Origin: Alphaproteobacteria bacterium
GTDB taxonomy: Bacteria > Pseudomonadota > Alphaproteobacteria > RF32 > CAG-239
NCBI GenBank assembly: GCA_017621635.1
Contig: JAGASU010000027.1
Location: forward strand, 1 to 45,522
DNA: 45,522 nucleotides
Reading direction: 5' to 3'
This document shows positions 11,074 through 42,627 of the stretch, piece after piece; within the stretch, counting starts at the first letter, position 1; every line of letters begins with the position of its first letter. The position numbers were made by a program, and so were the translations under genes. A model generated the notes under the pieces. The model did no database searches. It had not been told where the DNA came from and saw nothing but the letters and a program-made list of their open reading frames with translations.

Positions 11074-11112
11074 AAAAAAATAGTGTCTGTTTTAGCAGAC
11101 ACTATTTTTTTT
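11074..11112. terminator. Bidirectional terminator after pnp
   Basis: AAAAAAATAGTGTCTG...CAGACACTATTTTTTT hairpin. Confidence 0.85.
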
Positions 11113-11251
11113 ACTTTCCGTACAGCATACGCATGTATTCAAAAAGAACAATCGCACAAAGCAAAACCCCGACGAGCCAATACCCGCAACATAGCGCAAT
11201 AACTGCAACTAAGAGCAAAACAACAACTGCTCCGAAATACTTTTCAATCAT
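11111..11251 (-). CDS. 46-aa small membrane protein (below ORF-track cutoff)
   Basis: MIEKYFGAVVVLLLVAVIALCCGYWLVGVLLCAIVLFEYMRMLYGK*. Preceded by a TTGACA-17-TATCTT promoter (11319-11291) and ends at the pnp terminator. Confidence 0.6.
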   Translation of the reverse strand: MIEKYFGAVVVLLLVAVIALCCGYWLVGVLLCAIVLFEYMRMLYGK

Positions 11252-11348: not shown

Positions 11349-11507
11349 GCTGATAAAAAACGATCCTTTTTTCTACACAACTATAATACCACAAAGTTAA
11401 AAATAAGTAAACTTAAAAATCATTTAAATACATAGACCTACTCCCAATCCTCTGTAAAACCGAAGCTCTCCTTACCTGCTGAAAAAAAAGGATCGTTTAT
11501 TTTCAGC
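11349..11507. promoter_or_regulatory. Candidate invertible promoter (inverton), currently facing away from the gene at 11522
   Basis: Inverted repeats at 11349-11372 and 11484-11507 (22/24 match; perfect 15-bp core AAACGATCCTTTTTT) enclose 111 bp containing a minus-strand TTTACT-17-TATTAT promoter. Confidence 0.7.
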
Positions 11508-11521
11508 AGAAAGGAAAACCC

Positions 11522-12205
11522 ATGAGCTATAAAATTTCACAACAAGATATTGACACCATAAAAACTAATGGTACACCCGTTGTCAGCGGAACAATGAGAT
11601 ATGTTATCCCGCTTGATAAATTGTCTAATAAATTTGATTTTATTAACCCCAAAGACGCCGGCACCGAATGGGGAAACCAAAGCCTAAAAGGTGACGGAAA
11701 CGATATTTTACTACTAAACGGCTTAACCCCCGAACAAATAGAAAAAATTGAAACCTATGCCGCCAAATTTGAGCAAGAAAAACAAAAACCAATCTCTGAT
11801 ATGCACTTAGTCGAATTAAAGCAATTTATGTCCTACCTGTCAAAAAACGGCTTTAATGATGTCTATTGTTCCGATAAACAATATATGGAAACATCATTAA
11901 CCGCAAATGATTCAAACAAGCGTATCGGCCTCTACGCCCGTAACAAAGACGCTGTCTGCCGCGCCGCAGTCCTTCCATTAGGCACGGTTTATAGTGACGG
12001 TCAAAAAGAGCAGATAGCAAATGTTGAAGGTGCTTTACTGATTGTTCCCGAATCCGGCCGTCAAGAAGACATTCGTATTACCAATGTCCCAGAAGATTAT
12101 GCACCCCTATCAGGCAAAGACCAAATAACCTCGTTGATTCACTTAAAAGCTGATGCGTCTAAACACCAAACAGCTCAGTTTGCAAAGCAAAATGACGGCA
12201 GATAA
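11522..12205 (+). CDS. Hypothetical protein downstream of the invertible segment
   Basis: 227-aa ORF with RBS AAAGGA and no signal peptide; ends ...KQNDGR; followed by a terminator. Confidence 0.8.
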   Translation: MSYKISQQDIDTIKTNGTPVVSGTMRYVIPLDKLSNKFDFINPKDAGTEWGNQSLKGDGNDILLLNGLTPEQIEKIETYAAKFEQEKQKPISDMHLVELKQFMSYLSKNGFNDVYCSDKQYMETSLTANDSNKRIGLYARNKDAVCRAAVLPLGTVYSDGQKEQIANVEGALLIVPESGRQEDIRITNVPEDYAPLSGKDQITSLIHLKADASKHQTAQFAKQNDGR

Positions 12206-15075: not shown

Positions 15076-17025
15076 ATGCACGCAATACACTCGCTTATTG
15101 TTGACTTAACGCTGATTACAATTTATGCCGGACTAACCACCTTACTCTGCAAAAAACTAAAACAACCGATTGTTTTAGGCTACGTCTTAGCCGGTATTTT
15201 TGCCGGCCCCTATTTTAATTTTCTTCCGACCGTCAGCGACAAAGAAGACCTCACTTTGTGGGCGGATATCGGCGTTATTTTCCTTCTCTTCGGCTTAGGA
15301 CTTGAATTTAGTTTCAAAAAAATGCTAAACGTCGGCAAAGCTGCAATGATTACCGCCAACGCCAACATTATTTTTATGCTCTTTTTAGGCTACAACACCG
15401 GACTTTTACTCGGCTGGTCTACCATGGACAGTTTTTTCTTAGGCTCAATGATTTCTATGTCCTCCACCACCATCATCATCAAAACCTTTAATGAGCTTAA
15501 CATCAAAAAACAACGTTTCACTGACTTGGTGTTCGGCGTCCTAATTGTTGAAGATTTAATGGGAATCTTGCTCTTGGTTCTCCTCCCGACTATTGCCATG
15601 GGTTCCACCATTAACGGTACCGAGCTGGCCTTAAGTACGTTAAAACTCATATTTTTCTTAATTCTTTGTTTTATCACCGGCATTTATCTCGTCCCCACCT
15701 TTCTAAATAAAGTCGAAAAACTCTTAAGCGATGAAATGCTGTTGCTCATCACCATCAGCCTCTGCTTCGGTATGGTTCTTCTAGCCACTTCCTCAGGCTT
15801 TTCTTCTGCTTTGGGCGCATTCATTATGGGCTCGATTTTAGCAGAAACTTCCCTAATCGAACGTATAGAAAAGAATTTAAAACCGCTAAAAGACTTCTTT
15901 GGTGCCGTTTTCTTCGTTTCCGTCGGTATGATGGTTGACCCAGCCATGTTCATTACCTACGCCAAACCTATATGCATTATTACCATCATCGTCATTCTTG
16001 GTATGGTAACTTTCTCAACATTAGGCTTCACAGCCTCTGGAGAAACGTTAAAAACATCCGTTTATGGTGCATTTTCTTTAGCCCAAGTCGGCGAATTTGC
16101 TTTTATTATCGCCTCACTCGGTATGAGCTTAGGCGTTTTAAGCCCTAAAGTTTATCCGATAATCGTTGCCGTTTCGGTTATCACCACCTTTTTAACCCCG
16201 CTCATGATAAAATCAGCCGATCCGGCTTATAAATACCTTAACAAAAAACTTCCCGAATCTTGGCTGACATACATTAACAAATACGCCTCCTCCGCCACAA
16301 TAACCCATAACGAGGAACGCTTATGGAGCGCCTTATTTAAGAGTTATCTCTTGCGCTTAACGCTCTTTTCAATTATTCTTTACAGCATCATTGCTTTTTC
16401 AACAGCTATTCGCCCGTTTGTCCGCCAAATTATTCCCTACCGAATTTTAGCTAATATCCTGATGACTTTCTTAACATTTTTACTAATGTCCCCTTTCTTA
16501 AAAGCTCTCATCGGTTGGAATATCATCACTTCAAAATTCATAAAAACCAAACTGCACTGGTTGTTTCCCAAAAAACAAACCGATGAGCTTGAATTGGCAC
16601 GTACCTGCGAAAAAGAAAGCCACCATCCGGACACTGCAAATGCCCTCAAAACGGCTGCCTGTGCTGTTTTGGATGAAAAGACGCTACGCCTGCGCAACTT
16701 TTTCGCCGAAAAAAACCAAGTTTCCAGAATTTACTATAAACTCTGGATGGCCAAAAAAGCAAACCGCCTGCCGCTGATTATTTTAACCAGTTTCAGAATA
16801 CTTGTGTCATCTTTCTTCATCGTTACGGTTGTTCACAAATTTTTAAGCGAAAACCCGAAATTGACCTTTATCCTCTTACTGTTAACAATCTTTTCGGTTT
16901 CTCGATCCCGTTGGTTATTAGATCAATACTTAAAAATTGAAACGCAGTTCTTAAACAATCTCAAAGGACGCACCCCTTCTAACCCCGACAATGAAGAAAA
17001 AACGCCACCTACATCTCCGGCATAA
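15076..17025 (+). CDS. CPA2-family cation:proton antiporter
   Basis: Multiple TM helices; QPIVLGY, GLGLEFS, SMSSTTII, LIVED and AQVGEFAFII motifs. Confidence 0.9.
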   Translation: MHAIHSLIVDLTLITIYAGLTTLLCKKLKQPIVLGYVLAGIFAGPYFNFLPTVSDKEDLTLWADIGVIFLLFGLGLEFSFKKMLNVGKAAMITANANIIFMLFLGYNTGLLLGWSTMDSFFLGSMISMSSTTIIIKTFNELNIKKQRFTDLVFGVLIVEDLMGILLLVLLPTIAMGSTINGTELALSTLKLIFFLILCFITGIYLVPTFLNKVEKLLSDEMLLLITISLCFGMVLLATSSGFSSALGAFIMGSILAETSLIERIEKNLKPLKDFFGAVFFVSVGMMVDPAMFITYAKPICIITIIVILGMVTFSTLGFTASGETLKTSVYGAFSLAQVGEFAFIIASLGMSLGVLSPKVYPIIVAVSVITTFLTPLMIKSADPAYKYLNKKLPESWLTYINKYASSATITHNEERLWSALFKSYLLRLTLFSIILYSIIAFSTAIRPFVRQIIPYRILANILMTFLTFLLMSPFLKALIGWNIITSKFIKTKLHWLFPKKQTDELELARTCEKESHHPDTANALKTAACAVLDEKTLRLRNFFAEKNQVSRIYYKLWMAKKANRLPLIILTSFRILVSSFFIVTVVHKFLSENPKLTFILLLLTIFSVSRSRWLLDQYLKIETQFLNNLKGRTPSNPDNEEKTPPTSPA

Positions 17026-17629
17026 TTTCCGGCTCAAGTTTATGCTTGACGATATAACGGGAAAGAGTCAGTCTGTCAACCCGAAGCACACGCGCAATTT
17101 CTGATTTTGAAACATTGTCTACACGCATAGAGGTAATCTGTCGCTCTTTTCCGGCTAACTTTAAATGGCTGTTACGCCGTCCTTTGGGACGCCCCAAAAC
17201 CCGTCCCTCGGATTTTAGGCGCAGCAACGCCTCTTTTGTCCTCTGTGAAATAAGATTACGTTCAATCTCTGCCGACAATCCGAAAGCAAAAGCCAAAACC
17301 TTAGACTGAATATCCGTTCCCAAACGATAATTATCCTTAATCGTCCATACTTGAACCCCGTTTGACATGCAATAATGCAAAATACTCATAACCTGCAATA
17401 AATTACGCCCCAAACGTGAAAGCTCGGAAGCAATCAAAATATCGCCGTCCTTTAATTTTTTCAAAAGTTTTCCCAGTTTGCGCTTTTCCAGCTCTTTTGT
17501 CGCACTGATAGTTTCCATAATCCACTTTTCAATAATCATCTTATTATTAAAAGCATACGCTTTGATTTCAAAACGCTGATTTTCCGTTGTTTGCTTATCC
17601 GTACTAACTCTGATATATCCATAAATCAT
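17009..17629 (-). CDS. mpi: Mpi-family (master DNA invertase-like) serine recombinase
   Basis: Catalytic MIYGYIRVSTDKQT, SELSRLGR, the Mpi-typical WTIKDNYRLG.DIQSKVLAFAFGLSAEIERNLISQRTKEAL block and a C-terminal HTH. Confidence 0.85.
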   Translation of the reverse strand: MIYGYIRVSTDKQTTENQRFEIKAYAFNNKMIIEKWIMETISATKELEKRKLGKLLKKLKDGDILIASELSRLGRNLLQVMSILHYCMSNGVQVWTIKDNYRLGTDIQSKVLAFAFGLSAEIERNLISQRTKEALLRLKSEGRVLGRPKGRRNSHLKLAGKERQITSMRVDNVSKSEIARVLRVDRLTLSRYIVKHKLEPEIMPEM

Positions 17630-41017: not shown

Positions 41018-41093
41018 AGGGGTATAGCTCAGTTGGTAGAGCACCGGTCTCCAAAACCGGGTGTCGTGAGTTCGAATCTTACTGCCCCTGCCA
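41018..41093 (+). tRNA. tRNA-Trp(CCA)
   Basis: AGGGGTATAGCTCAGTTGGTAGAGCACCGGTCTCCAAAACCGGGTGTCGTGAGTTCGAATCTTACTGCCCCTGCCA. Confidence 0.97.
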
Positions 41094-41270
41094 TTAAAAA
41101 GGTCCGCTTTATGCGGACTTTTTTAATGGCATTTAGGGAAAGTTAGGTTCGAACTCACGAAGAAGTGAGTTTGACCAGGAGGATAAGGCGGGCGGAAGAA
41201 CGCCGGTCAGCATAGCTGATATCCGACGCAGCGGCGAAGCAAAACATAGCCTATCTTACTGCCCCTGCCA
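41094..41270 (+). repeat. tRNA-linked repeat unit 1 (ends in an 18-nt copy of the tRNA-Trp 3' end)
   Basis: ATCTTACTGCCCCTGCCA at 41076-41093 recurs at 41253-41270; the unit is nearly identical to 42457-42625. Confidence 0.9.
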
Positions 41271-42446: not shown

Positions 42447-42627
42447 TGCCCTGCCATTAAAAAGGTCCGCTTTATGCGGACTTTTTTAATGGCATTTAGG
42501 GAAAGTTGGTTCGAACTCACGAAGAAGTGAGTTTGACCAGGAGGATAAGGCGGGCGGAAGAACGCCGGTCAGCATAGCTGATATCCGACGCAGCGGCGAA
42601 GCAAAGCGTAGCCAATCGTCTGCCACT
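42447..42627 (+). repeat. tRNA-linked repeat unit 2 with eroded tRNA-end copies
   Basis: Starts TGCCCTGCCA, is near-identical to 41094-41250 and ends CTGCCACT. Confidence 0.9.

Follow-up and report, generated by a model that had tools for sequence, protein, structure and literature searches.

The window analysed here is a 45,522-nucleotide contig (JAGASU010000027.1 of assembly GCA_017621635.1) from an Alphaproteobacteria bacterium of the GTDB lineage RF32; CAG-239. It carries a gene for a small serine DNA invertase of the Mpi family and, 5.5 kb away, a pair of short dyad sites in front of an open reading frame (ORF) of 227 amino acids (aa). The genome to which it belongs (G000, in which the window is contig C123 and the other contigs are labelled C1, C4 and so on) is assembled into 135 contigs with 1,640,374 bases, 97.9% completeness, 6.0% contamination and 41% G+C. 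Paired sites of the same kind are dispersed throughout this genome, and the invertase and its paralogs probably act on them.

The first-pass annotation had described the recombinase as a stand-alone master invertase of the Bacteroides type, recognised by the block WTIKDNYRLGTDIQSKVLAFAFGLSAEIERNLISQRTKEAL; this block is indeed found in the translation of the ORF. The catalytic domain matches the Pfam family Resolvase (PF00239, E 2.5e-33, residues 2–143), and the protein as a whole belongs to NCBIfam NF009949, the master DNA invertase Mpi family of serine-type recombinases, with a score of 308 bits where the curated cut-off is 272 (E 2.7e-92, positions 1–200 of 203). Resolvase-type families stay below 35 bits, the second-best NCBIfam family being YneB with 34.1 bits against a cut-off of 175, which bears out the assignment to Mpi rather than to the Tn3 or Pin resolvases. 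Among solved structures, the nearest chains are those of the Gin invertase (4m6f, E 1.5e-14; 3uj3, 4.6e-14), with the gamma-delta and Tn3 resolvase chains ranking behind at about 1e-10, and the catalytic YIRVSTDKQ motif aligns with the Gin N-terminus. Relatives in metagenome-assembled genomes (MAGs) of Alphaproteobacteria are already called Mpi family in the NCBI annotation (P0003, P0082).

Within about 3 kb of the gene lie a Na+/H+ exchanger (PF00999), a 101-aa ORF without a family, a MatE transporter and a DMT_6 protein. These are mostly housekeeping transporters, and the earlier observation that no transposase, phage gene or flanking repeat adjoins the invertase was confirmed. The single inverted repeat found around the gene, with 73% complementarity, is probably a chance match. 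No recombination site lies within 5 kb, and the Din-type arrangement of a gene beside its own invertible segment is not found here; neither is a Tn3-type transposon with its transposase and res site, the surroundings being housekeeping genes in conserved synteny. The exchanger stands tail-to-tail with the window's invertase copy in 16 of 80 related loci (15 of 15 in L009–L023, and L070), with an exchanger identity of 77–98%. This synteny, conserved across the genus, indicates that the window's copy has been inherited vertically within it. The nearest public loci carry the record titles of uncultured Alphaproteobacteria MAGs, mostly of animal guts.

The dyad pair 5.5 kb from the gene (11349–11510) had been put forward as a candidate target, and it proved to be a member of the genome-wide site family described below. 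Its arms (11349–11372 and 11484–11507) each measure 24 nt, are separated by 111 nt and match at 92% complementarity. The downstream ORF has its ATG 11 nt (from the end of the nhmmer match, 11510) to 14 nt (from the end of the dyad, 11507) after the right-hand site. A promoter-like site inside the putative segment points away from this ORF in the assembled orientation; after inversion it would, by arithmetic, give a transcript beginning some 40 nt ahead of the ATG at 11522. The 227-aa ORF has no Pfam family and no usable Atlas relative, and its Atlas model has a predicted local distance difference test (pLDDT) value of 0.42. Across the element from the 227-aa ORF, a small hydrophobic ORF has upstream of it a fixed promoter-like site, TTGACA-17-TATCTT (11319 to 11291). 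Loose ends at 11370, 11477 and 11510, and a "goes back 33" joint, are due to cross-mapping from other copies of the site. Elsewhere in the window, two identical 19-nt hairpins (TGCCATTAAAAAGGTCCGC / GCGGACTTTTTTAATGGCA) occur at 41089–41131 and 42452–42494, 1.36 kb apart.

Table 1. The invertase gene and the components of the local element, in window coordinates.
Feature	Position	Strand	Remarks
Mpi-family serine DNA invertase gene	17009..17629	(-)	206 aa, ATG start; YIRVSTDKQ catalytic motif, GRP arm, C-terminal helix-turn-helix region
Left recombination site	11349..11376	.	outer arm GCTGATAAAAAA and core CGATCC (11361-11366) kept; inner arm degenerate
Right recombination site	11475..11510	.	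full dyad GCTGAAAAAAAA-GGATCG-TTTATTTTCAGC, core 11490-11495
Putative invertible segment	11377..11474	.	between both sites; one orientation seen
Promoter-like site in segment	11383..11411	(-)	TTTACT, 17 nt, TATTAT, preceded by TG; faces away from the 227-aa ORF
227-aa ORF, presumed regulated gene	11522..12205	(+)	absent from the closest relative, G034
46-aa hydrophobic small ORF	11111..11251	(-)	other side of the local element

The consensus of the family is a dyad of about 30 nt, GCTGA8-NGWWCN-T8CAGC, that is, GCTGAAAAAAAA-NGWWCN-TTTTTTTTCAGC, and several searches of the genome recovered it. The 12-mer AAAGGATCGTTT occurs 13 times in 1.64 Mb, against about 0.2 occurrences expected by simple arithmetic. 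A loose dyad search gave 60 matches compared with 1–5 in five shuffles, a profile search with nhmmer gave 29 matches at E<0.01 on 16 contigs, and the strict dyad pattern gave 22 sites with none in the reversed control. Nearly all sites are paired, 70–130 nt apart, with their cores mostly in inverted orientation, and together they form about 17 elements (C1, C4a, C4b, C10, C13, C20=C62=C109, C22, C32, C41, C46, C83, C93a, C93b, C95, C100, C107 and the one in the window). The C10 element has three sites, and the two cores of the C83 and C95 elements stand in direct orientation. By core, eight elements belong to the class GGTACG, six to GGATCG, two to GGAACG/GGAACA and one to GGTTGG. The elements are dispersed over 16 contigs, none of them on the contigs of the three invertase paralogs, and no Rfam RNA family was found at the four element-bearing loci searched.

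To look for inversion, we compared four orthologous loci with G034, the closest relative of G000, whose Mpi protein is 98% identical. Three of these loci are colinear, with the same orientation in both genomes. At C1:39629–39747 the flanks are colinear between the two genomes, while the 89-nt inner segment matches as its reverse complement (83/89 positions) rather than directly (47/89). This inversion holds for both tandem copies of the element in G034, and its breakpoints fall inside the 6-bp core CGTTCC/GGAACG. Within G000 itself, the paralogous copies C4a and C4b on one contig have common outer flanks and inner segments that are reverse complements of each other, that is, they are in opposite states. 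The expectation that invertible targets would exist genome-wide is thus supported by some 17 paired-dyad elements, one of them inverted between close relatives.

The sole fork in the k=141 assembly of this bin, where C109 continues into either C20 or C62, splits directly after a right-hand site, so that one left flank and one element join two different right flanks, which points to either a collapsed duplicate or recombination involving a distant site. Some elements behave like cassettes, in that element and adjoining gene occur together in one of the two genomes G000 and G034 and are both missing from the other (window 11362–12204, L090 against C23, L091 against C100). Finally, the paralogous surface-protein genes at C83:1–1739 and C95:24064–26768 have the element and the first ~80 nt beyond it in common at 98.5%, as well as a further 421-nt block at the contig ends (97.4%), with unrelated middles of 1.1 kb and 2.1 kb.

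The elements are located at the 5' ends of genes, and the GGTACG class shows a common layout there. In all eight of its elements one outer flank reads TACAAT, a hexamer composed of half of the core and the flank, and this flank is gene-proximal in the 7/7 that could be assessed, the gene beyond the C4b flank lying outside the contig. At one end of the invertible segment stands TTGACA (seven elements) or TTGACT (one), which in one inversion state is placed exactly 17 nt upstream of TACAAT; in this assembly C4b alone is in that state. Judged by these motifs, the eight elements look like split promoters, with the -35 hexamer on the invertible segment and the -10 hexamer fixed in the flank. The copies are homologous, so their shared layout amounts to conservation and not to eight independent events. 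An internal promoter aimed at the gene (TTGTCA, ~17 nt, TAAAAY) was also considered for this class; it is unsupported by the strict scan and is the weaker alternative. An internal, gene-directed promoter seems to apply instead to the autotransporter elements, which have the -10-like blocks TAAAAT, TAATAT and TAAATT. All these promoters, and the ON and OFF states that would follow from them, are putative.

Among the genes beside the elements, autotransporters with Pmp repeats are found on C93 (853 aa and 839 aa) and on C95, where the ORF, of at least 864 aa, is cut by the contig end; a second C95 autotransporter, complete at 1184 aa, terminates immediately before the element, outside its control. 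Ankyrin-repeat proteins are found beside the elements on C13 and C107, and a weak GtrII-like membrane protein beside that on C1. The remaining neighbours include a glycine-zipper lipoprotein, a TrbC/VirB2-like (pilin-like) protein, a Bax1-I protein, an FHA protein and several orphans.

Two of these protein groups are prominent throughout the genus. The family of 480–550-aa membrane proteins represented at C1:39761–44501 has matches in 36 of 36 genus genomes, often 3–5 in each, and one member has a weak match to the GtrII glucosyltransferases. Autotransporter beta-domains are abundant for such small genomes, with 10 in G000 and 2–11 in each of the 36.

The window's copy is not the only Mpi-type gene of its genome. 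The NF009949 search of G000 found three copies over the cut-off (C123, 307.4 bits; C47, 306; C30, 274.1), a fourth Mpi-like copy under it on C79 (254.5 bits) and four further weak resolvase-like matches. The serine motif and the GRP arm are present in 4/4 paralogs, whose identity to any other row of the tree described below is at most 58–64%. The term "stand-alone" thus holds for the gene context and fails for the copy number. Two resolvase-like ORFs (C47:10286–10852, plus strand, and C101:23222–23857, minus strand) have no catalytic serine motif and keep the C-terminal GR...HTH (helix-turn-helix) tail; the former sits 234 nt downstream of the Mpi paralog on C47. These two may be site-binding regulators.

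Counting matches at E<=1e-40 among 60 relatives, we found Mpi genes in 30 of the 35 remaining genomes of this genus (as many as six per genome), in the single genome of a second genus of the family, and in 1/24 other families of the class. A tree was built from the best 80 of 517 related loci, to which the four paralogs and two outgroup sequences were added, 86 rows in all. In it the protein falls within an Mpi clade and far from the genome's other resolvase-like genes, as the first-pass annotation had anticipated. One clade (SH-aLRT 99) takes in all 47 Pseudomonadota rows, the four paralogs and one row labelled Elusimicrobiota, and is nested among Bacteroidota rows beside three Bacteroidales MAGs, in a tree whose root rests on very long outgroup branches and whose row sample is biased towards the query. 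This topology fits one old transfer from Bacteroidota followed by duplication, and the enzyme was probably captured from that phylum long ago. Since the position beside the exchanger is conserved genus-wide, any such transfer would be ancient, not recent. The proposal of horizontal acquisition is to be qualified accordingly. The Elusimicrobiota-labelled row (L033, Candidatus Ruminimicrobiellum) is a contig whose Mpi gene falls within the alphaproteobacterial clade, which could reflect mis-binning or a transfer.

With respect to the sites, the strict dyad pattern is present in 8 of 61 related genomes, the relaxed A8/T8 version in 13 and the paired-site pattern in 8, with 0/61 for the reversed control of the latter. 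All eight paired-site genomes belong to this genus and all carry Mpi, while none of the five Mpi-negative genomes of the genus has paired sites. Co-occurrence of gene and sites across related genomes, which had been suggested as a check, is thus seen in one direction (8/8) and fails in the other, where 23 Mpi-positive genomes are without paired sites. Upstream sequence was examined for 30 relatives of the C1 membrane protein: repeats of the site type occur in G000, G034 and G024 alone, the other rows being distant paralogs.

Taking these results together, we consider it probable that the Hin/Gin-like Mpi invertase of the window acts in trans, jointly or in parallel with its three paralogs, on the ~17 dispersed promoter elements. 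Dimers of the recombinase would bind the A-tract arms and then synapse both sites; strand exchange within the 6-bp core, where we place the crossover, would flip the 70–130 nt between them. Each flip would re-aim a promoter, or its -35 half, so that it faces the adjoining gene or turns away from it. Proteins of the surface and of host interaction would thereby undergo combinatorial phase variation, among them autotransporters, ankyrin-repeat proteins, glycosyltransferase-like membrane proteins, a pilin-like protein and orphans, including the 227-aa ORF if the window's own element flips. The four Mpi paralogs are the obvious candidate enzymes for these sites, the window's copy being a putative one among them. 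The earlier claim of a global in-trans regulator with its own regulon is accordingly upheld in regard to the site family and the one inversion, while the link of this particular enzyme to the sites would follow by inference.

Several observations weigh against this interpretation. G034 is without window 11362–12204, that is, most of the local element and the 227-aa ORF, with a half-site kept. The local element appears in a single orientation in 4/4 gut metagenome runs (Logan contigs; three possibly from the source sample), a result that is uninformative on inversion because contigs drop minority variants. Promoter-like matches in the window region number 3 against a shuffle mean of 2.0, and in several elements a strict sigma-70 scan detected no promoter. 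No element adjoins any of the four paralogs. The central AT or TA is palindromic in 14/17 elements and alone would not fix the polarity for a serine recombinase, and the 12-6-12 dyads also resemble the core sites of tyrosine recombinases. Across genomes, paired sites of this type are absent from 23 of the 31 Mpi-positive genomes of the genus, and the presence of Mpi in all eight pattern-positive genomes is weak support because 31 of 36 genus genomes are positive anyway. A de novo search for inverted repeats found a pair in 0/19 autotransporter start regions from 10 Mpi-positive genomes; with 0/16 in regions from 5 Mpi-negative genomes and 2/8 in G000, this comparison cannot discriminate. Moreover, close Mpi relatives are encoded by four Bacteroidota genomes and one further alphaproteobacterial genome that have no A5-SGWWCS-T5 dyad; enzyme family and site type are therefore not conserved together.

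A less likely alternative is that the sites are invertible and the four paralogs divide the work, for instance by core type, with the window's copy serving one class only or other targets altogether. It is in line with the divergence of the four paralogs alongside four core classes, and with the many Mpi-positive genomes of the genus that are without this site type. On the other hand, G017 (70% complete) has a single Mpi match, an apparent syntenic ortholog of the window's copy (L015), yet two paired sites, and the arms are alike in all core classes, so that one DNA-binding domain could read all of them. A more speculative version adds to this division of labour the serine-less paralogs as site-binding regulators and a split promoter coupled to the recombinase. 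In such a multi-enzyme inversion network, the four paralogs would divide the ~17 switches by central dinucleotide (AT, TA, AA/TT) into separately tunable circuits; the 17-nt promoter spacer would be a recombinase-binding arm, and recombinase occupancy and promoter activity would be mechanically coupled. We regard this combination as rather unlikely.

The remaining explanations dispense with Mpi as the acting enzyme, with site-specific recombination or with distant targets. G000 encodes three tyrosine recombinases (two Xer-like proteins of ~310 aa and one on a putative mobile element on C70, beside a resolvase) and one large serine recombinase (557 aa, on C6). That XerC/D, the small C70 resolvase or the C6 enzyme flips the elements, leaving the Mpi-like genes an unrelated role, is unlikely: the 12-nt arms around a 6-bp spacer do look like tyrosine-recombinase core sites and no Mpi paralog is linked to an element, but of tyrosine recombinases the genome offers just the three named above, and both the C70 resolvase and the C6 recombinase look element-borne. 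A-tract half-sites, for their part, fit the reading of DNA by the GRP arm and helix-turn-helix of Hin-type invertases. It is very unlikely that the dyads are REP/MITE-like or terminator-like repeats, with inversion arising from rare homologous or replication-slippage recombination between inverted copies. The presence or absence of some elements with their adjacent gene between G000 and G034, and the unchanged orientation at three compared loci, would suit a repeat family of that sort; the location at gene 5' ends with a fixed polarity (TACAAT towards the gene in every assessable case), the C1 breakpoints inside the core and the inverted cores of most pairs would not, and the hairpins would be almost pure A:U stems, none of which is called a terminator in the window region. 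Least credible of all is a resolvase or invertase of a mobile element (a Tn3-like transposon, a plasmid or a prophage) with purely local action. Small serine recombinases are usually element-borne, but here the housekeeping transporters around the gene, the exchanger synteny, the lack of flanking repeats and the NF009949 score above its cut-off, with resolvase-type families far below it, all argue against that origin. We therefore retain the in-trans action of the Mpi invertase, with or alongside its paralogs, as the reading that best covers the data.

Master-invertase phase variation is a hallmark of gut Bacteroidales. If the present system is active, an uncultured lineage of animal-gut Alphaproteobacteria with very small genomes shares this strategy, and uses it to vary likely host-interaction factors, namely autotransporters, ankyrin-repeat proteins and glycosylation genes. 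The elements would be compact natural switches of ~100 bp, and the possible split-promoter design could be useful for synthetic biology and for studies of site choice by serine invertases. A literature search found no paper on Mpi-type switches in gut Alphaproteobacteria. According to the excerpted text of PMC5903667, Mpi is a notable exception among invertases in acting at a distance, and 0/4 Alphaproteobacteria were positive in an inversion survey; in the excerpts of PMC11602134, Alphaproteobacteria appear solely in a comparison of GC content.

The closest known system is that of Mpi in Bacteroides fragilis (also FinA or Ssr2), where, as excerpted from PMC10403206, deletion of mpi locks the promoters. 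Both enzymes are small serine invertases of the same NCBIfam family, unlinked to their targets (putative ones in the present case), and in both cases many dispersed, short promoter segments bounded by inverted repeats with a common site consensus lie before genes for surface structures. The present system differs in its alphaproteobacterial host with a 1.6-Mb genome, in having four paralogs instead of one master enzyme, in its shorter elements (70–130 nt between sites) and in its cargo of autotransporters, ankyrin-repeat proteins and orphans in place of capsule operons; moreover, eight elements here appear, from their sequence alone, to split the promoter across the crossover. At the level of the sites, the system recalls Hin/hix, Gin/gix, Cin and Pin, with Gin as the closest solved structure and dyads of two A-tract half-sites around a short core; the sites described here may be similar to hix. 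A resemblance of B. fragilis repeats to hin repeats is indicated by the title of Patrick et al. 2003, as given in the reference list of PMC3090145. The Din invertases, however, lie inside or beside a single invertible segment and use an enhancer in cis, whereas here the gene is at least 5.5 kb from any site and has ~17 putative targets. In the use of one enzyme for several dispersed switches there is also a likeness to RecV of Clostridioides difficile and to the Tsr-type invertases of Bacteroides, as far as the excerpts of PMC5903667 and PMC4747536 describe them, but those are tyrosine recombinases, of which G000 has only the two Xer-like proteins and the one on a putative mobile element. The inference of the first-pass annotation is thus largely right. 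What is described here belongs to a known kind of system, a master serine invertase with dispersed invertible promoters; it departs from its precedents in host and copy number, in site sequence and cargo, and perhaps in the design of the promoter.

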